Source: Thermoplasmatota archaeon (GTDB lineage Archaea > Thermoplasmatota > Penumbrarchaeia > Penumbrarchaeales > Penumbrarchaeaceae). Taken from it: a stretch of DNA of 20,883 bases. A model generated the notes under the pieces. The model did no database searches, was not told the origin of the DNA, and was given only the letters and a program-made list of their open reading frames with translations. Location: contig CBDDUX010000087.1 in the NCBI GenBank assembly GCA_965234725.1, positions 1 through 20,883 of the forward strand, written 5' to 3'. Positions 5,843 to 20,883 of this stretch are shown here, piece by piece. The translations under genes were made by a program, and so were the position numbers. Numbering within the stretch: the stretch's first letter is position 1; each line of letters opens with the position of its first letter.

Positions 5843-8575
5843 TCATTCCTCCCAATCCATCTCGTCATTTCTCCTTCTGATGAAAAGGAGGACAACAATG
5901 AACAGGATTATCAGGATCACAGCTGCTATGGCTACCACAACGATCCACATAGGGGAACCATTTTCGTCCTCTTTTTCAGGTTCTTGATCCTCTTTCACAG
6001 GTTCCTCGATCTCGAAGGTCAACGATAGTTCGATCCAACCGGGTCTCTCCTCTTCAGTGGATGAGATGTTCAACAATACCGAATGATTACCTTGTTCAAG
6101 AGAGGAGATCGAAAATTCCATCCCAATATATTCCACCCCATCCACTTGCCAGATGAAGGAAAGGTTCCTATCATCATCCGCCACAGCCTTGAAGAGGACG
6201 GTTCCGTTGGATGGGTAACTACTTCCCTGAGCGGGAGAAACAATACTTGCACCCATAGGTGCCACCGGTTCGATCGGTTCAGGTCCTTGATCTTCTGGCA
6301 ATGTAACATTGACAGTCCATTTGAAAAAATGGACTTCCGATCCTGACCCAAGAACGAGATCCACATCAAAGACCTCTCCACCTTCCAATCCAAGTTCTGA
6401 AGGATCAAGCAAGATCGAGGTTTCATTCGTTATGGTGAGGTTTAGAAAATTCCATTCTGAAAGGATAATGGTCCCATCCGGATCAAATGCATCATATCCG
6501 ATATCCAATGTTCCATTATATTGTAAGGTCGTATTACCCGAAAGCGGATCTAGTGAGACCTCGATTGGTCTGTCCACATCTTCTATTATTACCGTCCAGT
6601 TCCTCATAAGATCGAACGAGTGATCCCTTCCGTCATAGACAATAACCGAAATATTCAATGGGGAATCCTCCGAGGAGTTTGCACCCAAATATTCCGTATG
6701 AAGGTGGATATATCTGAATGCTTCAAAACTGGTATTCCCCACCATCCAAAAATATCTCAGATCGTCACCGTCTGGCTCAGATATGTTCAAGATGAATTCA
6801 ACGGTCATATTCTCCAAGACAGAAATCAGGGTCCCTTCGGGTGCATAGGACTCGATGACATGAGGGCGGTTCACGTCTGTAACATTGATCCGGCATTCAA
6901 TTTCGGTCATATTGTCCGCTGGATAAGTCTGATTGTCAGCGAGTTCATACCTAAGGATATAGGGATATGGTCTGTATGAATTGTTTTGATCATACGTGGT
7001 CAAAAAATCGTAATCCTTGCTGTTCGAAACAACTTCTCCATCGAGATACCACTGACCGAGAAGCTCCTCTCCACCTCTGGATGCTACAACTGAAAAATGG
7101 ATCGTATCCCCCTCCTCGATGTTGAGAGGTCCAGGTTCATGAGAGAGGTTCCAGAGGATCGAAGGTCTTGGTAACACAGTGAAATTGGTCTGAATTCTAT
7201 TGTTCGTTTCATTGATCTCAGTTACCTGGCCGTATATGTCAATGGTCAGACTCAGATTGTAGAAATTTGGAGAAATGAAGGTATCGTTCAGGTAAAGAAC
7301 AATAAAAGATCTGGCAGGAACTGATAGACCATAGGATGTCACTAACTCGTATCGATCAGGTGGAATAAGTTCCAGCATCATGGAAAAGTTCTGGACATCA
7401 AAGTTCGAGGGATTATGGATCCTCATCCCGATCCTGACCATGTCATCAACCGTCCCATTTCCATCCTGTTCTACCCAGAGATCACCCTCTTCCACAACCA
7501 GTTCCTGTGCTTTGGTCGTAACAGTGATCACTCCGATCCCTTCTCCTGTGTTGATCACAACAAGCACTCCCAGAGAAGCGTGATCGATAAGTGTCGGTGT
7601 ATCATCTGCATCCAATGGGGCTTTTAAAACAACGTCAAAATCCTTGTCCCCTCCAACGAGAACAGTGGTCTTGGCAATGTTACCGTCCAGAAAGAAGACA
7701 CTCACAAGACAATTGGAGATGGAAACCTCCCCGTGGACAGTGAAATCCTCGGTTACCCAGACCTGTTGTTCGGTCACTATCTCAAGGTCAACCTGAACAG
7801 AGGTCCTATGGTGTTTGAAAACAGAAAGTTCAAGTGGAATATCCAGGGTGGATCCTCCCACATCCAGGGTATAGCTTCTCAATATGGAATTGCCTACGGA
7901 TCCATTGTAGAAGAGGGTCTCTTCTCCGTTTACCAAAATAGGAAAGATATCGAAGGTACCCGCATCCACAATCATTGATCTTTTCGTCCCCAGAGAGCAA
8001 TCCTGAACGATAGGGACAAGATCTCCCGATCCACCGAATGGAAGCCTTGCGGAAGTATTGACATCCCAGGTATCTCCGGGTACAAGTGGGAAATCGTATT
8101 CTTCAAGTGGAGGCACGTATTCGTATCCAATGGTATAATCGCCATTGATGAAAGATACTGTACCGGAAACCGTTGCATTCAATACGGACCTGTATACTGC
8201 AAGGTCCTGTGCTCTATGCCAGAGATAACCGGTGATGTCTATATCGATCTCAATATCTCCGAGGATCGTCGACTCCTTCCCTGAAATGTGACCTGATAGA
8301 TTCGTGATATAAACCGGATCGCCATTCGAGAGCAGGTCCAGAGTGAAGAGGAAAACGCTCATGTTGATCCAACCGGAGAGTCCCACACTGACGATCCCAG
8401 CATCGTACTCGAACTGAGTGGTATAGTTCCAGAAATCATCCGGACCCCATACAGGGACATCCTCCCATCCCTCCGGGTCGAACGGTGGGTCCTCCAAGGG
8501 GGAGATCGATCCCTGGGCCATTGAGGATGCAGCTAGTAGGAGTGATAGAATTATTATCTTTAACGAGGATCTCAT
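5843..8575 (-). CDS. Secreted multi-domain surface protein (N-terminal beta-sheet domain, CARDB-like domain, PKD/cadherin-like Ig domains, C-terminal TM anchor)
   Basis: ORF track gives 5843..8656; a better start is ATG at 8575, preceded by GGTGGAG and giving signal peptide MRSSLKIIILSLLLAASSMA. CARDB-type EINETNN motif, EPDGDDLRYFW and FDPDG motifs, TM WIVVVAIAAVILIILFIVVLLFI then RRR and an acidic tail. Confidence 0.8.
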   Translation of the reverse strand: MRSSLKIIILSLLLAASSMAQGSISPLEDPPFDPEGWEDVPVWGPDDFWNYTTQFEYDAGIVSVGLSGWINMSVFLFTLDLLSNGDPVYITNLSGHISGKESTILGDIEIDIDITGYLWHRAQDLAVYRSVLNATVSGTVSFINGDYTIGYEYVPPLEEYDFPLVPGDTWDVNTSARLPFGGSGDLVPIVQDCSLGTKRSMIVDAGTFDIFPILVNGEETLFYNGSVGNSILRSYTLDVGGSTLDIPLELSVFKHHRTSVQVDLEIVTEQQVWVTEDFTVHGEVSISNCLVSVFFLDGNIAKTTVLVGGDKDFDVVLKAPLDADDTPTLIDHASLGVLVVINTGEGIGVITVTTKAQELVVEEGDLWVEQDGNGTVDDMVRIGMRIHNPSNFDVQNFSMMLELIPPDRYELVTSYGLSVPARSFIVLYLNDTFISPNFYNLSLTIDIYGQVTEINETNNRIQTNFTVLPRPSILWNLSHEPGPLNIEEGDTIHFSVVASRGGEELLGQWYLDGEVVSNSKDYDFLTTYDQNNSYRPYPYILRYELADNQTYPADNMTEIECRINVTDVNRPHVIESYAPEGTLISVLENMTVEFILNISEPDGDDLRYFWMVGNTSFEAFRYIHLHTEYLGANSSEDSPLNISVIVYDGRDHSFDLMRNWTVIIEDVDRPIEVSLDPLSGNTTLQYNGTLDIGYDAFDPDGTIILSEWNFLNLTITNETSILLDPSELGLEGGEVFDVDLVLGSGSEVHFFKWTVNVTLPEDQGPEPIEPVAPMGASIVSPAQGSSYPSNGTVLFKAVADDDRNLSFIWQVDGVEYIGMEFSISSLEQGNHSVLLNISSTEEERPGWIELSLTFEIEEPVKEDQEPEKEDENGSPMWIVVVAIAAVILIILFIVVLLFIRRRNDEMDWEE

Positions 8576-8588
8576 GTATACTCCACCT

Positions 8589-9587
8589 TCAGGGCTTTGG
8601 TGGTCTAATAATCTGCGGGGCTTTATCCTTTTTCGATCTCTGAGCGATCCAAACACCTATCAACAATCCCAATCCGGCCAAAAGTTGGACGATACCCAGT
8701 CTTTCTCCGAGTAGGACATATCCAAGTATCACAGAGAAGATCGGAAGCAAGAACACATAGAAAATGAGCCTGGATAGGTCACCGGTGCTCAGGACTCTGT
8801 ACCATATTATTGCTGCTACAGCATATACGCAAACTGAGATATAGAACAGGGCCAGGAAACTTTCAAAGGACATTGAAAATGCTCTGATCGGGTCCTCCAC
8901 CCCCGCTATCCAGACGATCATCAGAACAGGTAAAGTGAACAATGCTCCAAGGAAAGCGTTCATTCCTAGGAGGGCAACCGGATCGGCCTTTCGGTTCAGG
9001 GCCATTTTTAGAAGGATGCCGGATATTGAATATGAAAAGGCAGTCAGTAGATTGAGGACTCCCCCTATGACCTGATCGGAACCTAGCTCTATCCCGTTCC
9101 CGGAATAGGTAGTGAGGATTATCGTACAAGGTATTGATATCAGCAGACCTATAAATATCCAGACTCCGATCTTATCTTTCAAGAAGATCCACGCCAGAAA
9201 AATCGTGAAGACCGGACCAACTCCTTGTATAAGAGAAGCCAATGATGATTTTGTAGATGGGTCCATCATCATCATTCCCACGTTCTGCAGGATATTGGGA
9301 AGTGCGGTTCCGAAGAAAGCTGTTCCCACGACGATCAGAAGGTATCTCCTTTTCTTCATTCTGACAAAGAGCCACCATTCTTTTCTCAGAAGGACTCTTC
9401 TCTTAAGGACCAGTCCCAAGAAAAGGTACATTGACATCATGAAAACAGCAGCGATCGCAGACCTCAGGAAACCCAGGGTCACAGGAGGTATATCCTTTAA
9501 AGCAAGAACAATGGCCCAAAAAGCCGTACCGAATACCATCATGGAGAAAATGGCAAGGATCGTGGACCTATCGTTCCTTTCGATCAT
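8589..9587 (-). CDS. EamA/DMT superfamily transporter
   Basis: 332 aa with about 10 hydrophobic segments in two repeats; motifs PPVTLGFLR, GPVFTIFLAWIFLKDK and LPIFSVILGYVLLGERL are typical of EamA. Confidence 0.9.
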   Translation of the reverse strand: MIERNDRSTILAIFSMMVFGTAFWAIVLALKDIPPVTLGFLRSAIAAVFMMSMYLFLGLVLKRRVLLRKEWWLFVRMKKRRYLLIVVGTAFFGTALPNILQNVGMMMMDPSTKSSLASLIQGVGPVFTIFLAWIFLKDKIGVWIFIGLLISIPCTIILTTYSGNGIELGSDQVIGGVLNLLTAFSYSISGILLKMALNRKADPVALLGMNAFLGALFTLPVLMIVWIAGVEDPIRAFSMSFESFLALFYISVCVYAVAAIIWYRVLSTGDLSRLIFYVFLLPIFSVILGYVLLGERLGIVQLLAGLGLLIGVWIAQRSKKDKAPQIIRPPKP

Positions 9588-9604
9588 CCATACTCCAACT
9601 TGAT

Positions 9605-9815
9605 CATGTATTAAAATGAAGACCGACGAACCTTCTTTCCACCCACCGAAAGGGTTTAATCGATAACCTTTCCTTTTTACACTGACCCGGGAGGGGAAAA
9701 GCTGAGAACCATATCACAGATAGGAATGGGAGTCCCAGGTCTCGATATTATTTCAAGAGGTTTATTTATTGCAGACAGGAATACCCCGAAAATAACCCGG
9801 GAGAAGGTGTGAACG
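9605..9815. promoter_or_regulatory. Divergent promoter region between the EamA gene and the ABC operon
   Basis: Minus-strand TTTTAATA (~9609-9616) upstream of EamA; plus-strand GAAAGGG-TTTAAT (9648-9660) and AAGAGG-TTTATTTA (9755-9768); RBS AGGTGTGA before ATG 9817. Confidence 0.5.
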
Positions 9816-9816
9816 A

Positions 9817-10485
9817 ATGAGGTCGTCCTCACTTCGAAAACTATCTGTCAAGACGACAAATAATGAGAGAAAGGTCCGTTTCGGTCCTGTATCTTATGTC
9901 TTCAAGGAGGTTTGGAGGAACAGGTCCAGGACCCTGATGTCCATCTCCTCAATAGCGGCTCTCTCATTCCTATTTGTCCTTTTCATGTCAATGGAAAGCG
10001 GTTTCGAGGATTTTTTTGAAGATGATACAGGAGTACCTTCAGAGGACCAGAAAGACCTTTTCGAGGTCAAGGGAGTGATGGAACAGTGGATCTATCTGAT
10101 AACAGGTCTCTGCATGGTCCTTATGGTCCTTGTGGTCGCAAATACCGGCGTGATTACAGTTATCGAAAGGAAACAGGAACTTGCAAGTTTGAGGGCCATG
10201 GGGATCCCATCACTTAAAGTGGGACTGCTGGTCGGCGGATCTCTGGCTTTGATCCTTTATGGTGGGATTTTCTCCGGGACCATACTTGGCCTTGTTTCGA
10301 TCCCTTTGCTTGATAGGGTCAATATCACACTTGCAGCTGATGGTATAGGGTTTCCATTTGCATTCGAGTGGAGGACCATTTTCTATATTATCACAATAGG
10401 GACCGTGTCAGGTGCAGTAGGTTCCTCAATGCCTCTTTTCCTCATGTTAAGAAGCTCTCCTTTGGAGGTGCTAAGGGATGGTTGA
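9817..10485 (+). CDS. FtsX-like (MacB/LolE-type) ABC permease with very short extracytoplasmic loop
   Basis: N-terminal amphipathic VWRNRSRTLMS, four TM segments, coupling motif VIERKQELASLRAMG, C-terminal SSPLEVLRDG. Confidence 0.85.
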   Translation: MRSSSLRKLSVKTTNNERKVRFGPVSYVFKEVWRNRSRTLMSISSIAALSFLFVLFMSMESGFEDFFEDDTGVPSEDQKDLFEVKGVMEQWIYLITGLCMVLMVLVVANTGVITVIERKQELASLRAMGIPSLKVGLLVGGSLALILYGGIFSGTILGLVSIPLLDRVNITLAADGIGFPFAFEWRTIFYIITIGTVSGAVGSSMPLFLMLRSSPLEVLRDG

Positions 10486-11200
10486 TGGTGAGTTCATCTC
10501 GGTCCGCAATGCTGTCAAGGAATACAGGATGGGAAGTTCCATAGTAAGAGCCCTCGATGGAATGGACCTTGAAATAAATGAAGGTGAGATGGTGGCCATC
10601 ATGGGACCGTCCGGAGCTGGAAAGACCACCCTTCTGAACATCATAGGTGGTCTCGATAGTCCGGACAGCGGAAAGGTCCTCATCAAAAACATGGAGATAT
10701 CATCTCTCGGTGAAGGACAGAGGGCCCATTTCAGGAAGAACAATGTAGGTTTCATTTTTCAGTTCTTCAACCTTATCCCTTCTCTTACAGCTCTGGAGAA
10801 CGTGCTGGTTCCGGTCATGTTCGATCGTGACCCCCCTTACAAAAGGGCGTTATCACTCCTTGAAAGAGTGGGACTCAAGGATAGGATGGACCATGTTCCC
10901 GGGAAGCTTTCAGGTGGAGAGAGGCAGAGAGTTGCGATAGCCAGAGCATTGATAAATGACCCCATATTGATACTTGCTGACGAACCTACTGGAAACATCG
11001 ATTCCGAGACAGCAAGGGAGATAGTTGGACTCTTCAAAGAATTGAACGAGGAAGGTAAGACACTCCTCCTTGCAACTCACGACCGACTTGTGGCTGGAAG
11101 GGCCAGGAGCATGGTCCGTGTCAGGGATGGAAGAATAGTCAAGGGCAAGGCCGACCCCAGGTCAGGTGTTGTACATCTGACAAAAGGAGGAGGCATATAA
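10478..11200 (+). CDS. ABC transporter ATP-binding protein, LolD/MacB-like
   Basis: Walker A GPSGAGKTT, Q-loop GFIFQFFNL, signature LSGGERQRVAIARAL, Walker B ILADEPTGN, H-loop THD; overlaps the upstream stop by 8 nt. Confidence 0.95.
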   Translation: MVDGEFISVRNAVKEYRMGSSIVRALDGMDLEINEGEMVAIMGPSGAGKTTLLNIIGGLDSPDSGKVLIKNMEISSLGEGQRAHFRKNNVGFIFQFFNLIPSLTALENVLVPVMFDRDPPYKRALSLLERVGLKDRMDHVPGKLSGGERQRVAIARALINDPILILADEPTGNIDSETAREIVGLFKELNEEGKTLLLATHDRLVAGRARSMVRVRDGRIVKGKADPRSGVVHLTKGGGI

Positions 11201-11872
11201 TTGGATAGAAATACCTTCAATGCTGCCACTTACTCCATGTCCCATCTTGTGAAGGAGAGGGCCAGATCCCTGACAACGATCGTCACGATATCTCTAACTG
11301 TGGCTTTCCTACTCCTGACATCATCCTTACTGTTCGGTGTGATCTCTGAGATCCAGACAGATGAGAAGGCGGGTATCTTGCAGGGGCGTATCCCGGGATC
11401 ATTGGACATGTTCGAACAATTCCGGATAACCGGGGAGTTGTCAGAGAAGGCCAGGAACTCTTTGGTCAACTATCTCCTTATCACCTCGCTTATCGTGTTC
11501 ATTGTTGCCTTTTTTATAATGTACAATACAATGGCAATATCCGTCAGGGAAAGAAGGAAGGAGATCGGTATCTTGAGAGCGGTGGGATTCTCTACAAGCG
11601 AGGTGCTCAAGCTCTTTTTAGTGGAGGGTGGTATAATTGGTTTGATATCATGGATATCTGCCCTTTTCCTTGGCACGCCCCTCATAGTGAACCTTGCGGC
11701 ATACCTGATCGAGAGAGGTGATAGGGGATTGTTCTTCGTCCAGCCGGTGATCCCCATCCAGCTTGTATTGCTTTCTCTTATTGCGACACTGGCCCTTTCT
11801 GTTGGCTCCACATATATTGCAACGATAGGACCCGTAAGGTCCTCACCTGTGGCAATGATGAGGATCGGTTGA
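11201..11872 (+). CDS. Second FtsX-like (MacB/LolE-type) ABC permease with short extracytoplasmic loop
   Basis: TTG start after AGGAGGAGG; motif SVRERRKEIGILRAVGFS..EV..LFLVEG, four TM segments, C-terminal SSPVAMMR. Confidence 0.88.
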   Translation: MDRNTFNAATYSMSHLVKERARSLTTIVTISLTVAFLLLTSSLLFGVISEIQTDEKAGILQGRIPGSLDMFEQFRITGELSEKARNSLVNYLLITSLIVFIVAFFIMYNTMAISVRERRKEIGILRAVGFSTSEVLKLFLVEGGIIGLISWISALFLGTPLIVNLAAYLIERGDRGLFFVQPVIPIQLVLLSLIATLALSVGSTYIATIGPVRSSPVAMMRIG

Positions 11873-11957
11873 AAGAAGACCATGCAAATGTAGTGTCCTT
11901 CGAAATATAACGCTCCAAAGAGATCTGATGGACAATATTTCCATGATTTTGACCTCC

Positions 11958-11971
11958 CTATAATTATATAG
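11958..11971 (+). promoter_or_regulatory. TATA box, probably for a leaderless transcript of the translin/SepRS-like operon
   Basis: TTATATAG starts at 11964, 28 nt before ATG 11992; no SD-like sequence lies in front of that ATG. Confidence 0.5.
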
Positions 11972-11991
11972 CCGCTCACACTTCCATCGTC

Positions 11992-12582
11992 ATGACATTA
12001 CCAGGGCAGATCAGGTCATATATATCAGAGGACCTGGATCGGGAGGAGGAGGAAAGAGAGCGTGCCTATGGAAGGTCCAGGTCACTTATCAAAGCCTGCA
12101 GGGACATGATCTCGAGGATGGTCCAGGGGGAGATGGGAGATCCACAAGTCCTGCTGGATTCATATGATGATCTATTGACCGATCCTACCAATAGGATGGG
12201 TTTCGTGGAAGATTCTCTGACCGAGCTTTCTGAGGCTATTCTTTTACATAGGTCGATAATAATGGATGGTCTTCCAAAACCCGATGAGATCGGATTGACC
12301 GCCCGGGCCTATGCTTTAGGTGCCTGTGATGCAGTTGGAGAGCTGAGACGGATCGCTCTGAACAGACTAATTAAAGGGGATATAGAGGGTGCTGTCTTCA
12401 TGTATGATCGTATGAAGGACCTGTTCTCATTGGTCGACGGTCTAACATATCCATCTGGTATGATACAACTTAAACGCAAACAGGACTCTGCCCGGTCAGC
12501 CATAGACAGGACGCAGGGAGAACTCACTATCGTCCTTGCAGGAAGAAGGGCGACTGATATCGGAGATGAGAGAGATGGATGA
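11992..12582 (+). CDS. Archaeal translin/TRAX (C3PO) family RNA-binding endonuclease
   Basis: 196 aa, all-helical; EEERERAY..SR, ELSEA, YALGACDAVGELRR and LKRKQD.AR match translin-family motifs; the acidic catalytic set (E-x2-E and D-x3-E) is retained. Confidence 0.88.
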   Translation: MTLPGQIRSYISEDLDREEEERERAYGRSRSLIKACRDMISRMVQGEMGDPQVLLDSYDDLLTDPTNRMGFVEDSLTELSEAILLHRSIIMDGLPKPDEIGLTARAYALGACDAVGELRRIALNRLIKGDIEGAVFMYDRMKDLFSLVDGLTYPSGMIQLKRKQDSARSAIDRTQGELTIVLAGRRATDIGDERDG

Positions 12583-14140
12583 GAAAGAAGATGGTTTGAA
12601 GGGATCTCTGAATGAGAAGAAGGGAGAGGATGTCATAAATTACTTCTCTGGAGTTGGGCACCCTCATCCGATATCGCAGGGTGTCAACGAAATGAGGGGA
12701 CTTCTTCTGGGATCCGGATTTAACGAGATCCAAACTTCATACTTCGTGGAGAGAGGTGAGCTGAAGAACCTTACGGGTAATCTTTACCCGGTATTCCGGG
12801 ACTCGATATATCATCTGGCCTGGATAAGGCCTGAGCCCCTCGCCCCCACAATGGATGTGGAAAGAAAATTGAGGGATAGGTTTCCCAATATTGATATGGC
12901 CAACCTATGGAATATCCTTGATGGTCTGGATGAGGACACAAGTGGGGAGGAGATACTCTTTTCCATCCAGGAAGAACTGGATCTATCCGTCATGGAAACA
13001 GTCGAGCTCATGAACATCGTTCCAGGTCTTTCCAGGGGGGAGCCTAGAACCAGTGATATGACGCTTAGATCCTTCATGCCGACATCCTGGTTGTCCACCC
13101 TTGAAGCCACATATCATGAGGATAAAATGCCTCTCAGGTTATTCACTACGGCCACAGCGTTTCGAAGGGAACCTACGCCCGATTCCACCCATATAGAGAC
13201 CTATAATATCCTTTCACTTGCCATTGCCGATACTGATCTGACCCTTGACAAAGGACTTGCGGTTCTAAGGAGACTCATTGAGCGCCTTGACCTTTCTGAT
13301 ATTACATTCAAGGGTAAAAGTTACAGTTTCCCTTTCTTCGAAAAGGAATCTGAGCTCGAGATATTTGGAGGGGACCTTGAGCTTGGAACGTGTGGCATGG
13401 TAGCAAAGGAGATAAGGGAAAGCAGGGGAGTAAATGTACCTGTTTTCATTGCTGATCTGGGAATCGAGAGACTTCTGATGTTCAGGCATGGATATCCTGA
13501 TATCAGGGAACTTCTCTATCCACAGTTCTATGCAGCCTGGGACCTCACTGATGAGGAGATCGGAGATGCTATAAGATATGTCAGGAGACCTCAGACAGAT
13601 TTCGGTAAAGAGATCGCCCAGGCAATACACTCGATCTACAAGGATTCCCCTGACTGTCAGGACCTGTCAAAGAAGACAGCCTGGAAAGGTATCCTTGTAA
13701 GTTCAGACTATGGCAAATTCCTTGTAAGTACCGAACGGGCAAAGGAATTGAAGATCGAGGGAACTCCGGCCGAGGTGATACTCAAGGAGGCCAGAGAGGG
13801 AATGGGCCTTTGTGGTCCGGGAGCCTTCAATCAAATTCTGGTCCATGAAGGGAATATTCTGGGAGTTCCACCTTCAATGGTTAAATCCATGGAAGAAAAA
13901 GGAGCATTCAATACCAATAAGACATTCGTCAAAGCCTTCTCCAGATTTGCAGCCTGGAAGGTAGAGAGATCGCTGGATCGAGGTCATACTCTGAGAAAGG
14001 TGGATAAGATCAGGGATCTGGAGGGTATAAACCTCAAACTCACTTCCAAGGCCCTCTACTACATGCTCAGCCATAATAAGAAGGTGGATGTCCAGGGGCC
14101 GGTATTCCTGAAGTTCTCATTCAAGGTCAAAGATGAATGA
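12575..14140 (+). CDS. sepS: O-phosphoseryl-tRNA synthetase (SepRS) homologue, strongly diverged at the amino-acid pocket
   Basis: Likely start ATG 12575 after GGAGATGA (track start 12536). SepRS landmarks in order: G.PHP..., TLRS.M...W, P.RLF....FRRE...D..H..TY (motif 2), PV....LGIERL.M...GY.DIR.L.YPQFY (motif 3), LCGP...N.I.V..GNILG.PP, INLK and K.DV.GPVFL. Family call is secure; canonical Sep activity is doubtful (see findings). Confidence 0.85.
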   Translation: MDEKEDGLKGSLNEKKGEDVINYFSGVGHPHPISQGVNEMRGLLLGSGFNEIQTSYFVERGELKNLTGNLYPVFRDSIYHLAWIRPEPLAPTMDVERKLRDRFPNIDMANLWNILDGLDEDTSGEEILFSIQEELDLSVMETVELMNIVPGLSRGEPRTSDMTLRSFMPTSWLSTLEATYHEDKMPLRLFTTATAFRREPTPDSTHIETYNILSLAIADTDLTLDKGLAVLRRLIERLDLSDITFKGKSYSFPFFEKESELEIFGGDLELGTCGMVAKEIRESRGVNVPVFIADLGIERLLMFRHGYPDIRELLYPQFYAAWDLTDEEIGDAIRYVRRPQTDFGKEIAQAIHSIYKDSPDCQDLSKKTAWKGILVSSDYGKFLVSTERAKELKIEGTPAEVILKEAREGMGLCGPGAFNQILVHEGNILGVPPSMVKSMEEKGAFNTNKTFVKAFSRFAAWKVERSLDRGHTLRKVDKIRDLEGINLKLTSKALYYMLSHNKKVDVQGPVFLKFSFKVKDE

Positions 14141-15939
14141 AAGATTTCTTTCACCATTCTCCCCGGCCACTCCTTATATCCAACAGCAGGGAATGGTTCA
14201 ATGTGATGTCTAGAAGATCTCTTTTTGGGGAAAAGGAGTGGAGGTACAGGAAGGAGAACCTCGAGATCGGTGGACGACTTTCGAAGGGGCTTGATTGCGG
14301 TTCACTTACTGGGAGACTGCTTGCAGCAAGGGGTTTCTTAGGTGTTGAAGATGCTTATGCTTTCCTGCATCCTGCATTGAGGGGACTGCATGATCCTTTC
14401 CTGTTGAATGGGATGGAAAGGACCGTTGAACGGATAGGGAGGGCAATAACAGGTAAGGAGAGGGTCCTGGTCCATGGGGATTATGATGCAGATGGGATCA
14501 CATCCACGGCTCTTCTTGTAAAAGCTCTCTCATCTTCTATGGGCAGGGATCGTGTTTCCCACTATCTCCCATCTAGGTATGGTGAGGGTTACGGTGTATC
14601 CATGGAAAGGTTGGATACCGCTCAGAAAGAGGGTATTGATCTGGTCATCACCGTGGACTGCGGAATAAAAGCATTGGAGGCCGCCGACAAGGCCAGAGAT
14701 ATTGGGATCGACCTGATATTGACGGACCATCACGAACCGGGAGAAGAACTTCCCCGGGCCTTTTCGATCATAGATCCCAAGATCAAGGATTCAGGTTATC
14801 CATTCAGAGATCTGGCAGGGGTTGGAGTTTCATTCAAACTGGCACTTGCCCTGCAGCAGAGAGAGCTCCTTCTAATGGATGCAAGAGACCTTTTGGGACT
14901 CGTAGCCTTTGGGACAGTTGCAGATCTGGTACCTTTGCTCGGTGAGAATAGGATACTTGTGAAGCATGGTCTGGATATCCTAAGGGATACCAGAAGTCCA
15001 GGTATGTTATCTTTGATGACGGAATCCGGTATTGATCTTGCAAAGGGTATCAGTGCATCTGATATTGCCTTCAAGCTTGGTCCAAGGGTCAATTCTGCAG
15101 GTAGGATGGGGGATCCTGCCATGGCCCTGGAGTTGCTGCTAACCGATGACAGAGTGGATGCTGACCTTTTCGCCAGGGAGTTGAACAATTTGAACTTCAA
15201 GCGAAAGGCGGTTGGATCGAAACTTGTGCAAGAGATCGGCAGGGCCATGGGGGAGATCGGGACGGATGAGGATCCATTCATTGTTGTTTCTGGAGAGGGC
15301 TGGAATCCTGGCGTCCTTGGTATATCCGCCAACAGGATAATGGATAGTCTGGCCAGACCCGTTGCCGTTCTTTCAATTCAGGAGGGGATAGCAAGAGGTT
15401 CGGTGAGGGCACCTGAAGGTTTCGATCTACTGAAGGCTCTCGATTCTGTTAGGGACCTGTTCATTGAATATGGAGGGCATGAGAGAGCTGCCGGTGTCAC
15501 ATTGTCATCCGAACTCCTGAATGAATTGAGGTCCAGATTGGTCGATCATACCCGAGTTTCATATCCAGATCTCAGTTTCATTCCATCACTGTTGATAGAT
15601 ATGTCGCTTAACATCGATGAAATGGACTTGAACGAGTTGAAGGACCTGGAAAAACTTGAACCATTCGGAACAGGCAATCCGACTCCATTGGTATCCATCA
15701 GAGATATCATGGTCGGAGGAGAGAGAAGGACGGTAGGTGATGGTAAGCATCTGAGAATGACCATTGAGGATGGAAGCAGCAAGGTCCAGTGCATATATTT
15801 TAACGGCGGACAACTTCTTGACCAACTTCACACAGGGATGATCATTTCTGTGGTTGGAGAACCTTCTGTCCATCGGTGGGGGGGAAAGGAATCGGTCCAA
15901 CTGAGACTTGTCGATATCAAGAGCGAAGAACACTGCTGA
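14137..15939 (+). CDS. recJ: Single-stranded-DNA-specific exonuclease RecJ, bacterial type
   Basis: DPFLLNGM, HGDYDADG, EGYG, ITVDCG, TDHH, LAGVGVSFKL, GTVADLVPLLGENR, GPRVNSAGR, RGSVR, GGHERAAG, LEPFGTGNP and a C-terminal OB-fold region (KHLRM...QLRLVDI). ATGA overlap with the upstream gene; alternative start ATG 14206. Confidence 0.95.
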   Translation: MKDFFHHSPRPLLISNSREWFNVMSRRSLFGEKEWRYRKENLEIGGRLSKGLDCGSLTGRLLAARGFLGVEDAYAFLHPALRGLHDPFLLNGMERTVERIGRAITGKERVLVHGDYDADGITSTALLVKALSSSMGRDRVSHYLPSRYGEGYGVSMERLDTAQKEGIDLVITVDCGIKALEAADKARDIGIDLILTDHHEPGEELPRAFSIIDPKIKDSGYPFRDLAGVGVSFKLALALQQRELLLMDARDLLGLVAFGTVADLVPLLGENRILVKHGLDILRDTRSPGMLSLMTESGIDLAKGISASDIAFKLGPRVNSAGRMGDPAMALELLLTDDRVDADLFARELNNLNFKRKAVGSKLVQEIGRAMGEIGTDEDPFIVVSGEGWNPGVLGISANRIMDSLARPVAVLSIQEGIARGSVRAPEGFDLLKALDSVRDLFIEYGGHERAAGVTLSSELLNELRSRLVDHTRVSYPDLSFIPSLLIDMSLNIDEMDLNELKDLEKLEPFGTGNPTPLVSIRDIMVGGERRTVGDGKHLRMTIEDGSSKVQCIYFNGGQLLDQLHTGMIISVVGEPSVHRWGGKESVQLRLVDIKSEEHC

Positions 15940-15999
15940 TGAACATTGTTATATCCCTTCCCACTTATCATGATATGGCAATTTCTGCCGGTGGTTCAA

Positions 16000-16596
16000 A
16001 TGAAGCTCATCAAGGTCCTTGGTTTTGACCTGGACGGAACCCTTGTTAAGATGAAGCTGGATTTCAAGATGATCAGGAAGGACCTCGGGATCCCGGATGG
16101 AGATACGTTGGGATATATCTCCTCACTTCCAGAGCAGGAAGCAAAAAGACTTTTCAACATGTTGAAGGAGAAAGAGATGGAAGCAGCTGACCTTGCCGAA
16201 CCAGCGGAAGGAGCCAGGGAACTTATTGATTACTGCATTGAGAAGAACATCAAAGTTGTTGTGATCACACGCAACTCTGAAGAGGCAACAAAGAAAACAC
16301 TTGAGAACCTCGATCTAAATGTTGATATGGTCATATCCAGGGACCATGCTACCCCGAAGCCATCTCCAGAGGCCATAAACATAGTCCTAAATCAATTCGG
16401 GATCGAACCTAAGGAGATGGCCTACGTTGGAGACTACCTTTATGATATCCAGGCCGGAAATGCAGCCGGTGTCAAGACGATCCTTCTCTCCGGCCAGGAA
16501 AGGGCCGGTGAGTGGGCATCATATGCAAATTACGTTGCTGAGGACCTTTATGAGGTCCTTGATATATTGAGAGAAGGGAAGACCATCGGGGGTTGA
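16000..16596 (+). CDS. HAD-superfamily hydrolase (phosphoglycolate-phosphatase-like, subfamily IA)
   Basis: Likely start ATG 16000 after GGTGG (track start 15946). Motif I FDLDGTL, II ITRN, III KPSP, IV VGDYLYDIQAG. Confidence 0.9.
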   Translation: MKLIKVLGFDLDGTLVKMKLDFKMIRKDLGIPDGDTLGYISSLPEQEAKRLFNMLKEKEMEAADLAEPAEGARELIDYCIEKNIKVVVITRNSEEATKKTLENLDLNVDMVISRDHATPKPSPEAINIVLNQFGIEPKEMAYVGDYLYDIQAGNAAGVKTILLSGQERAGEWASYANYVAEDLYEVLDILREGKTIGG

Positions 16597-16599
16597 CCT

Positions 16600-17355
16600 T
16601 TGGAAGAGTTGGAGGTAGGGAAGGCAGGGGTTTTGAGCCTTGTACTTGTGGATGCCGAAATTGAGCTCGTACCCCCTGAGTTCTGGTCCCATCCCGCAGT
16701 TGTGGAAAATGCCAAGAAAAGGAAGAAGAAGCCCTCCTTGGTGCTACTGGATACAAACCTGCATCACTCGCTTTTTAGGGACCATGTTGAAAGGAACAGG
16801 AGGGGAAGACCGGATATAGTCCATCAGTTCCTTCTGATAGGGTTGGAATCGATCCTCAACATCGAAGGTGGACTCAAGTTATACATTCACACCAGGAACG
16901 ATGAACTGATAACCATCTCTCCCAAAACAAGACTTCCCAAGAACTACAATCGATATTACGGCCTCTTCGAGGAGCTCTTCAGATCAGGTTCTGTTCCACC
17001 TGGAAATGATCCATTGATAACCATGAAGCCTGGAATGGACCTTAAAGAAGTTCTGGAAGAGGTCTTCAGGTCGGGTCCCCAGGGAATGAAAAGGACTGTC
17101 GTTACACTTGATTCCGGAGGAACAAGATCGAATGCTTACGACAAGATAGGATCATTGGGAGAAGGACCATTCCATCTGATCTGCCTGATAGGTGGATTTC
17201 CATCCGGTGGTTTCAAGTCTAAACCTCATAAGTATTCCGATGTCACCCTCTCCCTTCATAGTAATGAACTGAAGGCCTGGGCAGTTGAGATGGAATTGAT
17301 ATCCGCCTTCTACAACGTCAAGTTCAGAGGAATCCGTACTTCTGAAGAAGCATGA
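16600..17355 (+). CDS. nep1: Nep1/EMG1 16S rRNA pseudouridine N1-methyltransferase (SPOUT fold)
   Basis: AEIELVP, LLDTNLHH, RGRPDIVH..LL..LESILN..G.L..YIHT, RLPKNYNRYYGLFEELF, IGGFPSGGF. Start could instead be TTG 16633. Confidence 0.93.
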   Translation: MEELEVGKAGVLSLVLVDAEIELVPPEFWSHPAVVENAKKRKKKPSLVLLDTNLHHSLFRDHVERNRRGRPDIVHQFLLIGLESILNIEGGLKLYIHTRNDELITISPKTRLPKNYNRYYGLFEELFRSGSVPPGNDPLITMKPGMDLKEVLEEVFRSGPQGMKRTVVTLDSGGTRSNAYDKIGSLGEGPFHLICLIGGFPSGGFKSKPHKYSDVTLSLHSNELKAWAVEMELISAFYNVKFRGIRTSEEA

Positions 17356-18226
17356 GGTCCTCTGTGGAGATCTTGTCCCCCTTCTTGAACTTCTCATATA
17401 TCTTCTCGGCTTCTACCTTACCTGTTGCAGGGCTTGGTGCCTGGGGTGCGGACTGTGCCTTTCCAGGTTTCTTCTCCTGACTCCTTCTCCTCTGTTTCAA
17501 TGCATAAAGGATCTTGTCCATATCATGGACCAGATGTATCATCTCGATGTGGTGCTTATGTTCCTCATCTGCCTTTACCTTGGAGGCAACGAAGCTTTCC
17601 TGTGCTGAATCCGCTTCCTTCCTTATCCTGTCGGACTGGGAGAACCTGTCTATCATCTGGTCATGTTCTTTTTGGGCCAGGTCTGCATAGTTATTGACCT
17701 GATGGTGTGCATCGTCCATGTTGGTCTTTGCATCCCTGACCTTGGTGATCAGCTCTTTCATCTCTCCGGTTGCTTCCATCAACTTCTCTTTTTTCCGAAC
17801 CTGATGTTTCAATGAACCTATCTTTTCGACAAGTCCCCTTTCCTTGTCTGCTTCAAGGACAGAGGTCTGCTGTTTGAACTCTAGTCCCTTGAGCTCCTTC
17901 TTCAACTTTGAAAGCGAAACCTCATCATGTGTTGACAATCTGGATTTCCTCTGCTTGTCAAGTTCAGCTTTAAGAGCATTATAATCCCTGGTCAGGACGT
18001 CCCTCACGGACTTCTGCTCCCTGACCTTGCTATTGAGCTCATCACGCTTCTCCTTGAACTTATTAGCTTCCTGGAGAAGCTTTTTTACTTGTGCGTTCAG
18101 CTGATCTCTGGTTTCGGCGAACCTTTTTGTCTCCTGGTTCAGCCTGTCCCTCTTCTTTCTGTGAGCTTCAGCTTCTAAGTTGACCTTATTCCTTTTATCC
18201 TCAAGTTCATCAAGATACTCCGGCAT
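17324..18226 (-). CDS. Conserved archaeal long coiled-coil protein (COG1340-like)
   Basis: Likely start ATG 18226 (track start 18238). Repeated KRD.LN/RD.LN heptads, LEFKQQTSVL..DKE, RKEAD..., C-terminal AEKIYEKFKKGDKISTEDLMLLQK signature. Confidence 0.85.
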   Translation of the reverse strand: MPEYLDELEDKRNKVNLEAEAHRKKRDRLNQETKRFAETRDQLNAQVKKLLQEANKFKEKRDELNSKVREQKSVRDVLTRDYNALKAELDKQRKSRLSTHDEVSLSKLKKELKGLEFKQQTSVLEADKERGLVEKIGSLKHQVRKKEKLMEATGEMKELITKVRDAKTNMDDAHHQVNNYADLAQKEHDQMIDRFSQSDRIRKEADSAQESFVASKVKADEEHKHHIEMIHLVHDMDKILYALKQRRRSQEKKPGKAQSAPQAPSPATGKVEAEKIYEKFKKGDKISTEDLMLLQKYGFL

Positions 18227-18266
18227 TGGACATCCCACGTTCGCAGTTTATGGCACACTGATGGAA

Positions 18267-18366
18267 AGCCTCCCGGATGACCGGGGGCGGGAGGCTATAC
18301 AGGGGCTTCCTTTTTAAAATTTCCCCCAGGACCAGTTATTTTAAGGCGGAATCAAGTATTTAATCC
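18267..18366. promoter_or_regulatory. Divergent promoter region with a GC-rich inverted repeat
   Basis: Minus-strand GGGAAA-TTTTAAAA (18312-18325); plus-strand AT-rich boxes near 18336-18346 and 18357-18364; perfect inverted repeat AGCCTCCCG (18267-18275) / CGGGAGGCT (18288-18296). Confidence 0.5.
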
Positions 18367-18400
18367 AGGTCCACGTTCAACCAGACCAGAGGTGTGAGTA

Positions 18401-19039
18401 TTGGAGACCCTGGAGATAGTGCTCCTTTCAGCTATTGGTCTTCTTGCAGGTTCCCTCTTCATATGGGCCCTTGCAAGCTCCATGATAATTATTCAAGAGT
18501 ATGAGATAGGTGTATATCTTCGTCTGGGCCGGTTCGTCAAGAACCTTGGTCCAGGCCTACATCTTGTGGCTCCCTTCATCTCCAAGGTATACAGAGCTGA
18601 TAAAAGGCTCCAGACATTGGACCTGGGCAGGCAGGAGATCATGACATCCGATCTATCCCCCACTGTAATTGAGGCGATCGTTCAATACAATATCGATAGA
18701 CCGGATCTTTCACTTCTTAAGGTAGATAAATACAAGACGAATCTAAGCCACATAGCACAGACCACTATCCGCAAGCTTGCTCTGGCATATGATCTGGAAT
18801 CCCTGATCAGGGATCAAGACAGATTGAACAAAGATTTCATGAAGAAGATGATGGAGGAGAGCACACCCTTCGGTCTCACTGTGATCAGGACCGAGATTAG
18901 GGAGATAGATCCTGTGGGGCCTGTCAAAGCCGCAATCGAGGACCGGATGGCCGCAGTGAAGGAGAGAGAGGCTATGATCCTCAGGGCTGACGGAAAGAAG
19001 AGGGCCCTTCAACTGGAGTTAGAGGGAAAAAGATCCTGA
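18401..19039 (+). CDS. SPFH (stomatin/prohibitin/band 7) domain membrane protein
   Basis: TTG after GAGGTGTGA; N-terminal TM, then QEYEIGVYLRLGRF...LGPGLHLVAPFI, DKRLQTLD...QEIMTSD, AQTTIR, GLTVIRTEIREIDP and KEREAMILRADG. Confidence 0.92.
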   Translation: METLEIVLLSAIGLLAGSLFIWALASSMIIIQEYEIGVYLRLGRFVKNLGPGLHLVAPFISKVYRADKRLQTLDLGRQEIMTSDLSPTVIEAIVQYNIDRPDLSLLKVDKYKTNLSHIAQTTIRKLALAYDLESLIRDQDRLNKDFMKKMMEESTPFGLTVIRTEIREIDPVGPVKAAIEDRMAAVKEREAMILRADGKKRALQLELEGKRS

Positions 19040-19155
19040 AAAAGTCGTCAAGACCCCCATTTGGAGAATGTAACCCATCTGAATATGGATAATCCCCTTG
19101 TTTAAATACCAGATAATGGGAATTTAATAATAGTGGTAATGTTGTTTCAATCGAG

Positions 19156-20184
19156 ATGGGGAAACGTATCAGCCTTACAGTTGATGAAAGGGTTATTCTT
19201 CACCTTTACGAGTTCATACCTTATGAGGAAGATTTCGAGGCTCCTGGTGACATCACACAGGCCGGTATCGCAAAAGGTATTGGGATCGAGAGAAAGCATG
19301 TTCCCAGAGCGGTAAAAAAACTGATCACGGAGAATCTTGTGGAGACCCGTATATCCCACGTAAAAAGCGGAAGGCAGAGGAAGAAAGTATACTATCTTAC
19401 CTTCGAGGGTAAGGCCCTTGCAAGACGGATCTGGGAATCCCTTGCCAAGAAAATGGTGATTATCAGGGATGAGGATGGAAAAGAAAAGGAGACCTCCTTC
19501 TCGGAGCTGTGTTTCACCTTTCAGGTTGGTAAGACACCCATCCAGCTCCTGATGGAGTTAAAGGATGGAAACTATTACCTTCCAAATGAGGCTCCGGACC
19601 ATCCCGAGAGAATTGAGAGGAAGGAGAAGAAGAAGTCACCTGAAGTTCACGGTGCAAAGGATATCTATAAGAAAGCCCTAAAAAAAGCCTGGGAGGATTC
19701 GATCCTTACAAAGGATGAATCCGCATTATTAAAGGAACTCCGTGATTCACTAGGAATAAGCGAAGAAGAGCACAGAATGCTCCAAGAGGAGATCCTTGGA
19801 GGCAGTGCGGCGATGTCAGAACCTCTGAACAAGATGGAGGTCTACAAGAAGATCCTGGAAGTGGCCATGAGGGATGGAACGATAACTGAGGATGAGCAGG
19901 ATATCCTAGACGAACTGGAGAGGTCCCTTGGAATGGATAGGGAGACCATAACCCAGCTTAAGATGGAGATGAAGCTTATGGAGGGGGAGGGAATTATGAC
20001 AAGGGAGAAGAAACATAACAATTTCAAGGATATCTACTCCTCTGTTATAAGGGAATCAATGAAGGATGGAAGGATATCACGCGATGAACAGAATATCATT
20101 ATACTCCTGAAGAAACTCATGGAGATCGAGGATCAGGAGCATCTCAAGATTTTCGAGAGTATCAATGAGGATAGTGAACGATAG
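19156..20184 (+). CDS. Winged-HTH (MarR-like) protein with three C-terminal TerB-like helical repeats
   Basis: ITQAGIAKGIGIERKHVPRAVKKL...LVE......RKKVYYLTFEG is a wHTH; three copies of Y...L.....DG.IT.DE...L..L...LG follow; TATA TTTAATAA at 19123-19130. Confidence 0.8.
   Translation: MGKRISLTVDERVILHLYEFIPYEEDFEAPGDITQAGIAKGIGIERKHVPRAVKKLITENLVETRISHVKSGRQRKKVYYLTFEGKALARRIWESLAKKMVIIRDEDGKEKETSFSELCFTFQVGKTPIQLLMELKDGNYYLPNEAPDHPERIERKEKKKSPEVHGAKDIYKKALKKAWEDSILTKDESALLKELRDSLGISEEEHRMLQEEILGGSAAMSEPLNKMEVYKKILEVAMRDGTITEDEQDILDELERSLGMDRETITQLKMEMKLMEGEGIMTREKKHNNFKDIYSSVIRESMKDGRISRDEQNIIILLKKLMEIEDQEHLKIFESINEDSER
19660..20165 (+). repeat. Three ~55-65-aa TerB-like protein repeats
   Basis: DIYKKALKKAWEDSILTKDESALLKELRDSLGISEEEH / EVYKKILEVAMRDGTITEDEQDILDELERSLGMDRET / DIYSSVIRESMKDGRISRDEQNIIILLKKLMEIEDQEH. 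Confidence 0.8.
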
Positions 20185-20241
20185 ATTCAAATCCCAATGC
20201 CGGGATTATGACAAAGGTCCGAGTCCCTAGGGGGAAAGAAG

Positions 20242-20523
20242 ATGCTAGAAGAATCAAGCCATATGGAGAGCCTTGAAGTATTCACTCCGTGGGGTGTGAG
20301 CATAGGAATGACCGCCAGTGTGGAGATAGACTCAGAGAATTGTGAGATCGCAAATATATTCCTCGAAGAGACCAATAGTAAGCTGGTGGAAGAAGGCGCC
20401 AGCATACTGATACCCTATAGATGGGTACAGGCAGTGGGGGATATCATTATTCTGAGATATTTCCCTGAGGAACTACCCATCAGGTCAATGGAGGACCTTG
20501 GGCTTGATGAGTACAGGTACTGA
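20242..20523 (+). CDS. PRC-barrel domain protein
   Basis: 93 aa; EVFT..G..IG....VEID and IPYRWVQAVGDIIIL are typical of archaeal stand-alone PRC-barrel proteins. Confidence 0.85.
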   Translation: MLEESSHMESLEVFTPWGVSIGMTASVEIDSENCEIANIFLEETNSKLVEEGASILIPYRWVQAVGDIIILRYFPEELPIRSMEDLGLDEYRY

Positions 20524-20531
20524 GTGATATA

Positions 20532-20759
20532 ATGGCAGCCAGAAAGGATTCCGTAGAAAGGACCTGCGAGGTCAAGGGATGCTCGAACAAGGCCGAGAGG
20601 TCAGTTAGTATCAAGAAGATAGCAAAGGCCGGTCTTTCCATCGAGGGAAAAGCTGGCAATGCACATATTTGCAAGGAACATTACAGGGATTACAAGAAAG
20701 CCACAAAAGAGGACCGTAAGCTCGAGAGGCTTGGTTGGGGAAATCCTGGAGCGCCGTAA
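20532..20759 (+). CDS. Small conserved archaeal putative zinc-binding protein
   Basis: 75 aa, basic; C-x4-C (CEVKGC)...AERS and C-x2-H (ICKEHY..YKK..K.DR.LERL); RBS-like GAGTGA overlapping the upstream stop. Confidence 0.75.
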   Translation: MAARKDSVERTCEVKGCSNKAERSVSIKKIAKAGLSIEGKAGNAHICKEHYRDYKKATKEDRKLERLGWGNPGAP

Positions 20760-20770
20760 AGATAATATCC

Positions 20771-20783
20771 AAGGATTTTATCC
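20771..20783 (+). promoter_or_regulatory. BRE/TATA promoter of the tRNA gene
   Basis: AAGGA-TTTTATC; the T-run starts at 20776, 29 nt before the mature tRNA 5' end. Confidence 0.45.
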
Positions 20784-20882: not shown

Positions 20883-20883
20883 T

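Follow-up and report, generated by a model that had tools for sequence, protein, structure and literature searches.

A Phe-Pro-aromatic loop at PheRS columns in a SepRS-like class IIc synthetase homologue of Thermoplasmatota

How should a loop that resembles the one of phenylalanyl-tRNA synthetase (PheRS) be understood when it lies within a protein built like O-phosphoseryl-tRNA synthetase (SepRS)? What would such a protein attach to a tRNA? These questions are raised by a locus of a Thermoplasmatota archaeon (assembly GCA_965234725.1, contig CBDDUX010000087.1), of which 20,883 nucleotides were analysed and are referred to here as the window. The window carries a gene for a SepRS-like class IIc synthetase homologue, and within this gene lies the reported stretch, S262 to V289, whose 28 residues, as given by a first-pass annotation of the letters, are the exact translation of plus-strand positions 13319..13402. 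Residues are counted from position 12536 throughout. In our reading, the stretch is probably part of a remodelled amino-acid pocket. The enzyme around it would be a class IIc synthetase derived from SepRS, with its gene flanked by those for a TRAX homologue and RecJ. How the Phe-Pro pair of the stretch arose is a separate and less certain matter, weighed on its own below.

The protein and its published family

The protein keeps the entire SepRS architecture, from the N-terminal part through the catalytic core and the insertion to the anticodon-binding domain. The SepRS scaffold that the first-pass annotation had named is borne out by four kinds of comparison. The TIGR00470 (sepS) profile spans residues 40-531 at profile positions 43-532 of 533, with 201.1 bits against a curated cut-off of 380.65. 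The best 8 PDB sequences are all SepRS (2du3_A at 1e-45, residues 39-531), and PheRS comes next at 4e-10, over the core only. In Foldseek, the 10 best chains are again all SepRS (2du3_A at 1.2e-34), followed by PheRS at about 1e-12 to 1e-11 and pyrrolysyl-tRNA synthetase (PylRS) at about 4e-11. Through hhalign, the comparison with 27 canonical SepRS gives an E value of 1.8e-89 over 481 columns, and that with 21 PheRS-alpha sequences gives a probability of 99.2% and an E value of 9.1e-20 over 134 columns, at residues 193-329. Other models match below their cut-offs, including those for PheS (TIGR00468, 71.8 bits, cut-off 237.45; NF003210, 74.9 bits, cut-off 350), PylRS (TIGR02367, 31.4 bits, cut-off 178.15) and SrmL (NF051887, 33.6 bits, cut-off 300). 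Pfam finds the tRNA-synt_2d core at 6e-28, and SepRS_C at 22.8 bits, under its cut-off of 26.9. An AlphaFold2 model has a mean predicted local distance difference test (pLDDT) score of 74 and a predicted template modelling score of 0.51, with the C-terminal domain mostly at 84-94.

A word-indexed search of 5.8 billion proteins, with 7,999 candidates scored, yielded 31 relatives at 45-95% identity, and the next match (P0033) stands at 27%. The window protein and these relatives form the alignment A1 (n=32), from which the model was also built. All named relatives come from metagenome-assembled genomes (MAGs) of Thermoplasmatota or Thermoplasmatales, P0007 being from 'Thermoplasmatales archaeon ex4484_6', and the closest relative, at 95% identity, is from an uncultured Thermoplasmatales MAG (contig L001). 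Against L001, the ratio of nonsynonymous to synonymous substitution rates (dN/dS) is 0.047 over 521 codons, while against L002-L004 dS is saturated and gives no estimate. The gene is under strong purifying selection.

The window protein is an orthologue of the SepRS-like proteins of Thermoplasmata, which were named by Mukai et al. in 2022 (Front Genet 12:794509, PMC8762117, section 3.3.1). The gene order, Ile305-Ala306-Asp307, the altered phosphoserine (Sep) sites and the host group all fit, and nothing in the main text of that paper contradicts the membership. In its account, the genes stand in the order TRAX, SepRS-like, recJ; the Asn-X-Gly of SepRS is swapped for Ile/Leu-X-Asp, for Tyr-Ile-Asn or for His-Leu-Glu; and four Sep-recognition residues are altered. 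The same text proposes that these proteins attach another amino acid or perform another tRNA-dependent reaction, and reads the locus as an ancestral TRAX-SepRS operon put to new use. Both there and in PMC5424206, TRAX and SepRS are presented as a putative ancestral operon; PMC5424206 also notes that the most diverged SepRS(-like) genes stand without a paired SepCysS.

The reported loop and strand and the surrounding pocket

In the AlphaFold2 model, residues 261-273 form a loop, and strands follow at 274-278 and 281-289. Across A1, the pattern K-x-Y-x-[FY]-P-[FY]-[FY] occurs in 32/32 members, as does E-[LI]-G-T-[CF]-G, and K261, Y263, P266, E273, E275, E282, G284, T285 and G287 are invariant. 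Conservation of the FPF loop among orthologues, on which the first-pass annotation had staked its reading, was thus found in every member in the form [FY]-P-[FY]. The motif is not a chance feature of one sequence, because it is kept in all 32 under strong purifying selection.

Comparison between families was made on a MAFFT alignment of 80 sequences taken from an exhaustive representative search, comprising 13 SepRS-like proteins, 7 other non-canonical SepRS homologues, 27 canonical SepRS, 10 degenerate homologues and 23 PheRS-alpha of the archaeal/eukaryal type. The labels 'canonical', 'other non-canonical' and 'degenerate' were given after inspecting the alignment. An aromatic-Pro-aromatic triplet at 265-267 is found in 13/13 SepRS-like proteins and 22/23 PheRS-alpha, and in none of the canonical SepRS (0/27), other non-canonical (0/7) or degenerate (0/10) sequences. 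The profile alignment by hhalign pairs F265-P266-F267 column for column with the F-P-[Y/F] of PheRS, at a per-column confidence of 8-9. In PheRS, the phenylalanine ring is contacted by a Phe, a stacking Phe/Tyr, a Thr/Val and an Ala (PMC7387524), the ring residues of the Thermus thermophilus enzyme being Phe258 and Phe260 (PMC8555319). The SepRS-like family has both stacking residues, and Phe268 and Ile305 replace both small ones (Table 1). The PheRS-like FPF loop is therefore confirmed in the sense that a Phe-Pro-aromatic sequence occupies the ring-sandwich columns of PheRS, as judged by hhalign and by the column counts.

Table 1. Residues at the loop and pocket columns in three groups of proteins
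Column	SepRS-like family (A1)	Canonical SepRS	PheRS-alpha
180	Phe 31/Tyr 1 of 32	His 27/27	His 21/23
182	Pro 32/32	Thr 26/27	Thr 23/23
265	Phe 30/Tyr 2 of 32	Ser 20/27	Phe 18/Tyr 4 of 23
266	Pro 32/32	Lys 13/27, never Pro	Pro 23/23
267	Tyr 20/Phe 12	Tyr 26/27	Tyr 17/Phe 6
268	Phe 29/Tyr 3	Tyr 27/27	Thr 23/23
305	Ile 27/Leu 4/Val 1 of 32	Asn 26/27	Ala 23/23
307	Asp 31/Glu 1 of 32	Gly 26/27	Gly 23/23

The likeness to PheRS is narrow. Core columns (172-333) were counted as discriminating if conservation reaches 70% or more both within the family and within PheRS, and if SepRS seldom has the residue of PheRS. Only 2 of the 11 such columns, F265 and P266, match PheRS. At the 15 columns that are conserved within each of the three groups and set SepRS and PheRS apart, the family agrees with SepRS at 8, with PheRS at 2 (F265, G284) and with neither at 5. 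Of the PheRS-like loop residues that had been described, F265 and P266 hold, whereas the aromatics at 267 and 268 are also the SepRS state (Tyr-Tyr). The 'SepRS loop length' that had been thought distinctive does not separate the families, since the spacing from 265 to 273 is 7 intervening residues in 70/70 sequences of four groups. Ahead of the loop, the lead-in exceeds that of PheRS by about 2 residues, which SepRS shares; the hairpin between the strands, at 4 residues, is shorter than in 25/27 SepRS (8 or more there) and in 23/23 PheRS. The second strand is generic for class IIc, with a universal Glu and second Gly and a Met288 that is frequent in SepRS too, and only Gly284 leans towards PheRS. 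In the GxCGMV segment that had been called PheRS-like, G284 and the universal G287 do match the sampled PheRS (G-G-A-G-I-F); the rest does not, and Gly284 is also present in 6/27 canonical SepRS. The first reading was correct in observation and overstated in the extent of the PheRS likeness, so that it is partly supported.

The pocket around the loop departs from both families. SepRS holds Sep through His, Met (by its backbone), Thr, Ser, Ser and Asn (PMC7387524), a set whose spacing fits H186, M187, T188, S231, S233 and N325 of 2du3. In the alignment with 2du3, these ligands become F180, M181, P182, I225, S227 and I305. Four of the five side-chain ligands are replaced by apolar residues, each fixed in the family, and only S227 (the equivalent of Ser233) is kept. 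Tyrosine hydroxyls are lost at two further sites, where a Tyr becomes Phe268 and Tyr309 of SepRS becomes Val/Ile289. The PheRS ligands RTHTS and QxE are missing, as the first-pass annotation had stated, their equivalents here being R-S-F-M-P-T and I-L-S, and Ile305 and Asp307 do stand in the pocket-floor Ala and Gly columns of PheRS. Among 46 conserved core columns, 7 show one residue in both SepRS and PheRS and another in the family; three of the seven, F180, P182 and D307, lie in the pocket. Because these changes (H to F, T to P, G to D) fall at sites where SepRS and PheRS agree, the pocket is derived and not ancestral, whatever the history of Phe-Pro.

The ATP site, by comparison, is intact. 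The ATP and magnesium residues R210, R211, E212, E282, T285, G309, E311 and R312 are invariant in 32/32, and position 223 is Tyr in 31 and Phe in 1. Judged by alignment, the class II catalytic residues are all in place, namely the motif 2 Arg/Glu, the motif 3 Arg, the magnesium strand and the adenine-stacking aromatic. In the anticodon-binding domain, E418 is invariant and residue 432 is Asn in 28 and Asp in 4. Residue 420 is R, K, G, S, V, A or I in the family (residues 418-420 are encoded at 13787-13795), as against acidic in 24/27 canonical SepRS. The title of PDB entry 2du5 names an E418N/E420N mutant with an opal-suppressor tRNA, which suggests that E418 and E420 of SepRS read the anticodon. 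With E418 kept and 420 variable, binding of tRNA would be retained and the readout of the anticodon changed.

Substrate, origin and the rival readings

The protein's most likely function would be to charge a tRNA, at the expense of ATP, with an amino acid that is largely apolar and carries no phosphate. The enzyme is predicted to form an acyl-adenylate and to pass the acyl group on to a tRNA, which the retained anticodon-binding domain would hold. Its substrate should not be phosphoserine, as the side chains that would hold the phosphate are now apolar (His to Phe, Thr to Pro, Ser to Ile and Asn to Ile). Phenylalanine in the PheRS pose is also unlikely, because Phe268, Ile305 and Asp307 would fill the space left by Thr/Val, Ala and Gly. 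The most likely substrate seems to be an amino acid whose side chain is largely apolar and close to Sep in size. The Phe-Pro-aromatic loop may then act as an apolar lid or wall of the pocket, and Asp307 possibly binds an ammonium group, which could be a distal amine or else the alpha-amine, now deprived of its usual ligands. The aromatic or hydrophobic substrate of the first-pass annotation is supported in part: the change of the pocket from polar to apolar fits a hydrophobic side chain other than Sep, and the likeness to PheRS is limited to F265 and P266. Finally, the remodelling would be derived, with a SepRS repurposed in one archaeal group and Phe-Pro regained by convergence on the PheRS state. 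Of all these steps this one is the least certain; we hold it at about even strength while preferring it to retention.

A number of points weigh against this reading, some of them on the side of function and others on the side of origin. The charging role is assigned by sequence comparison for every member of the family, and the pocket-facing position of F265, P266 and F267 is assigned by homology. An alpha-amino acid substrate is not assured, because all of the usual PheRS ligands of the alpha-amine are absent, and the role given to Asp307 is a guess. The AlphaFold2 confidence is below 50 at residues 166-179 and 209-222, which cover R178 and motif 2. Near the SepRS-like gene, no cognate tRNA gene is evident, the sole nearby tRNA gene being a tRNA-Arg(CCT) about 6.7 kb downstream. 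On the side of origin, the trees place the family early: in the PheRS-rooted core tree, the SepRS-like family and P0036 form the first branch (98/76) and the rest group together at 96/73, and the approximately unbiased (AU) test rejects the family together with the Archaeoglobus/methanogen-type SepRS (p = 0.0001), although this is one nested placement and the group was named after the tree was seen. Taken at face value, a basal placement favours retention of Phe-Pro over convergence.

Ancestral retention is the strongest of the alternatives, and we consider it unlikely but worth serious weighing. It holds that the SepRS-like lineage split off before canonical SepRS gained its phosphate pocket, and that Phe-Pro, with Glu269 and Gly284, is left from a PheRS-like ancestor. 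The core tree that bears on it was made by maximum likelihood from 164 columns and 64 rows, under LG+C20+F+G4 with posterior mean site frequencies (PMSF) and 200 bootstrap trees, and was rooted on 18 PheRS-alpha. Omitted from the trees were P0034 (a near-copy of P0030), the 10 degenerate homologues (P0081, P0082, P0092, P0094, P0095, P0099, P0100, P0103, P0114 and P0118), SepRS-family matches shorter than 450 aa, 5 of the 23 PheRS, and PylRS. In this tree, canonical SepRS is monophyletic (98/93, and in 97% of the bootstrap trees), the SepRS-like family forms a clade at 100/97, and a quick version of the core tree gives the first branch of the family with P0036 a Shimodaira-Hasegawa-like approximate likelihood ratio test (SH-aLRT) value of 76. 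The full-length family tree likewise sets canonical SepRS on one side of a branch, with an SH-aLRT value of 99. On such a basal topology, keeping Phe-Pro costs fewer changes than regaining it, and the putative ancestral TRAX-SepRS operon is compatible with an early split (PMC8762117, PMC5424206).

The base of the core tree, however, has the classic look of long-branch attraction. The remaining non-canonical lineages form a ladder below canonical SepRS, with end branches of 0.8-1.6 and each lineage of narrow taxonomic range, and the bootstrap is unsettled (correlation 0.911). The AU test does not reject a topology that unites all non-canonical lineages in one clade (p-AU 0.745). The check that the first-pass annotation had proposed, basal versus nested, thus comes out in part: the rooted trees speak for a family that branches outside canonical SepRS, and a ladder of long branches shares this placement. 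Retention also has to meet the absence of Phe-Pro from all 7 other non-canonical lineages, the PheRS-like state at just 2 of the 11 discriminating columns, and a pocket in which positions common to PheRS and SepRS have taken derived states. Since the family occurs in Thermoplasmatota alone, the reading of an ancient paralogue calls for its loss from all other groups. We keep convergence as the preferred origin on these grounds.

Some observations on the other non-canonical lineages stand beside the trees. P0036, the lineage nearest to the SepRS-like family, has His-Leu-Glu and the loop Pro-Pro-Tyr-Tyr. Tyr-Ile-Asn is found in P0038 and P0041, whose lengths of 630-682 aa exceed that of the SepRS-like protein by about 100-150 aa. 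In P0040, Leu-Val-Asp is present and the arginines of both motif 2 and motif 3 are gone. Among the non-canonical SepRS homologues (P0036, P0038-P0043), column 307 recurrently holds a residue that is acidic or an amide (D, E or N).

It would be improbable, in our judgement, that the protein is a pseudo-synthetase, that is, a degenerate SepRS that activates no acid and works with TRAX and RecJ only by binding tRNA or RNA, with the aromatic loop as structural filling. All alpha-amino ligands known from PheRS are indeed missing, the operon partners are nucleases or RNA-binding proteins, and among other SepRS homologues there are plainly degenerate ones that lack arginines of motif 2 or motif 3, as P0040 does. 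Here, however, the motif 2 and motif 3 arginines, the Glu and Thr of the magnesium strand and the adenine-stacking aromatic show little or no variation across the 32 members, and the dN/dS is low. The pocket residues, too, are invariant, and such invariance would not be looked for in an unused cavity.

Charging of phenylalanine or a close aromatic analogue in the manner of PheRS is very improbable, and the first-pass annotation, in not predicting simple Phe charging, was right. Phe265 and Phe/Tyr267 do occupy both ring-sandwich columns. The remaining two ring contacts are unmet, as the small Thr/Val and Ala are Phe268 and Ile305, the floor Gly is Asp307, and the His, Thr, Gln and Glu ligands are Phe, Pro, Ile and Ser. 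Additionally, the PheS models reach 72-75 bits against cut-offs of 237-350, and the attached tRNA-binding domain is of the SepRS type and not of the PheRS type.

A very divergent true SepRS making Sep-tRNA(Cys) is still less probable than Phe charging, for although 6 of the 31 relatives are labelled 'O-phosphoseryl-tRNA synthetase' by JGI, and the full-length architecture, Ser227 and Glu418 are kept, the TIGR00470 score is 201 bits against 380.65, four of five Sep side-chain ligands and Asn-x-Gly are replaced, an Asp stands where the phosphate would lie, and the Asn of 26/27 canonical SepRS occurs in 0/32.

Operon, novelty and comparison with known systems

The SepRS-like gene is the second of three genes on the plus strand (Table 2). 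Its probable true start is the ATG at 12575, which gives 521 aa and corresponds to the start in the 95%-identical relative P0002; the listed TTG at 12536 probably lies 13 codons upstream of the real start. The TGA stop of TRAX (12580-12582) overlaps this probable ATG (window 12566-12582), and the TGA stop of the SepRS-like gene overlaps the recJ ATG as ATGA (14137-14140). The overlapping stop and start codons therefore indicate co-translation of TRAX, the SepRS-like gene and recJ.

Table 2. Features of the window and their coordinates
Feature	Position	Strand	Description
391-aa ORF	161-1336	+	no Pfam match at E <= 0.001
1490-aa predicted surface protein	1366-5838	+	right-handed beta-helix/NosD repeats; several Ig-like, PKD and CarboxypepD_reg domains
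937-aa predicted surface protein	5843-8656	-	PKD domain
TRAX (translin-family) homologue, operon gene 1	11992..12582	+	Pfam Translin 3.1e-08
SepRS-like class IIc synthetase homologue	12536..14140	+	open reading frame (ORF) of 534 codons from TTG 12536
R178-T183	13067..13084	+	SepRS R-S-H-M-T-T / PheRS R-T-H-T-T; His to Phe180, Thr to Pro182
Motif 2 F-R-R-E (R210, R211, E212)	13160..13171	+	ATP/adenylate site; invariant 32/32
Y223-S227	13202..13216	+	Y223 at the PheRS adenine-stacking Phe column; I225 for SepRS Ser231/PheRS Gln; S227 = SepRS Ser233
Reported stretch S262-V289	13319..13402	+	aromatic loop Y263, F265, P266, F267, F268; strand E273-F277; minimal hairpin; strand E282-V289
F304-R312	13445..13471	+	Ile305-Ala306-Asp307 for SepRS Asn-x-Gly, then motif 3 G-I-E-R
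C-terminal SepRS-type anticodon-binding domain	13661..14137	+	about residues 376-534; end-to-end alignment with the SepRS domain
RecJ, bacterial type, operon gene 3	14137..15939	+	TIGR00644 recJ 526.1 bits, cut-off 396.9

Related loci were drawn from the contigs of 185,579 species genomes, taken at one genome per species, and gave 22 loci (L001-L022), all of them in Thermoplasmatota MAGs. A TRAX homologue lies directly 5' of the SepRS-like gene in 22/22, and RecJ lies 3' of it in 21/22, the last locus (L019) ending inside the SepRS-like gene. The linkage of these three genes alone is weak evidence, because the entire block from ABC-FtsX to Band7 is syntenic. About 12 kb (window 8589-20883) is shared in up to 22 species-level MAGs, with SepRS-like identity down to 46%, in the order EamA, ABC ATPase, FtsX, TRAX, SepRS-like, RecJ, HAD, Nep1, DUF7121, Band7, a 342-aa HTH/coiled protein and tRNA-Arg(CCT). 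This tRNA-Arg(CCT) was considered as the cognate tRNA and set aside, as it occurs in 11/22 loci and belongs to the general synteny block. A predicted complex of the SepRS-like protein (residues 14-534, alignment A1) with the TRAX homologue (alignment A4) gave a score of 0.00 against a mark of 0.32, which speaks neither for nor against pairing.

The identity of the partners is supported by profiles. A profile of 23 orthologues of the TRAX homologue matches the TRAX of A. fulgidus (3zc1_A) at 3.2e-22. Its top NCBIfam models, the PRK14562 series, all under cut-off, are titled 'haloacid dehalogenase superfamily protein', and set against Pfam and the solved A. fulgidus structure this looks like a naming mismatch in the library. 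RecJ also carries Pfam DHH, DHHA1 and RecJ_OB. It is of the bacterial type despite the archaeal host, the archaeal RecJ/GAN model giving only 49.5 bits against a cut-off of 360.

The family itself has been known since 2022, and what is added here is a precise pocket map on which tests of substrates can be based. Compared with the main text of PMC8762117, what is new is the conserved Phe-Pro-aromatic loop at PheRS columns and the tally of SepRS-like, PheRS-like and unique pocket sites. Further additions to that text are the finding that the ATP site is invariant, the coupled translation of the three genes, and the 22 species-level genomes with the locus. The words 'hydrophobic', 'aromatic', 'phenylalanine' and 'FPF' do not occur in the main text of PMC8762117, and its figures and supplements, which lie outside this scope, may show the loop. 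Full-text literature searches found no functional study of SepRS-like proteins, and in the review that has 'SepRS' and 'Thermoplasmatota' together these proteins are not discussed.

The locus bears on how amino-acid specificity shifts within subclass IIc. It appears to represent a natural descendant of SepRS in which the ATP site and the tRNA-binding domain are intact and the pocket has been wholly re-lined with apolar residues. Such a protein could offer a ready-made new specificity, for an orthogonal pair or for a tRNA-dependent pathway, and the residue map of its pocket (the Phe-Pro lid, Ile305 and Asp307) narrows the candidate substrates and mutations. SepRS and PylRS are both workhorses of genetic-code expansion. 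To our knowledge, SepRS is, besides PylRS, the only synthetase that has evolved for a non-canonical amino acid. A bolder proposal, which we put forward with little confidence, is that the SepRS-like enzyme might be a natural extra synthetase specificity, placing an apolar, non-phosphorylated and possibly non-canonical amino acid onto a tRNA read by the modified anticodon-binding domain, in which Glu418 is kept and residue 420 can vary. This could lead to a new tRNA-dependent biosynthesis or to a lineage-specific recoding in Thermoplasmatota, with TRAX and RecJ handling the RNA partner.

Among known systems, canonical SepRS (A. fulgidus 2DU3, M. jannaschii 2DU7 and M. maripaludis 2ODR) is the closest, with the same full-length domain order at 23-29% identity. 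W185, K261, the aromatics at 267 and 268, S227, F304, E418 and N432 are common to both, and clade I of SepRS also has a TRAX neighbour (PMC5424206). The differences include the shorter hairpin and the pocket, where Phe, Pro, Ile and Ile stand for the phosphate-binding His, Thr, Ser and Asn, Asp stands for Gly327, and Val/Ile stands for Tyr309.

PheRS-alpha of the archaeal/eukaryal type shares the class IIc core, the Phe-Pro-[Phe/Tyr] at the Phe258/Phe260 columns, Glu269 and Gly284. The SepRS-like protein differs from it in having neither the RTHT/QxE ligands nor the PheRS N-terminal region, in its bulky Phe268, Ile305 and Asp307 where PheRS has Thr/Val, Ala and Gly, and in carrying a SepRS anticodon-binding domain instead of relying on a beta subunit. 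The catalytic domain of PylRS shares the class IIc core, as the Foldseek match indicates; however, the PylRS model stays far below its cut-off and the tRNA-binding domains differ. The pocket of PylRS is deep and largely apolar, with weak recognition of the alpha-amine, and in these respects the pocket predicted for the SepRS-like protein may be likened to it.

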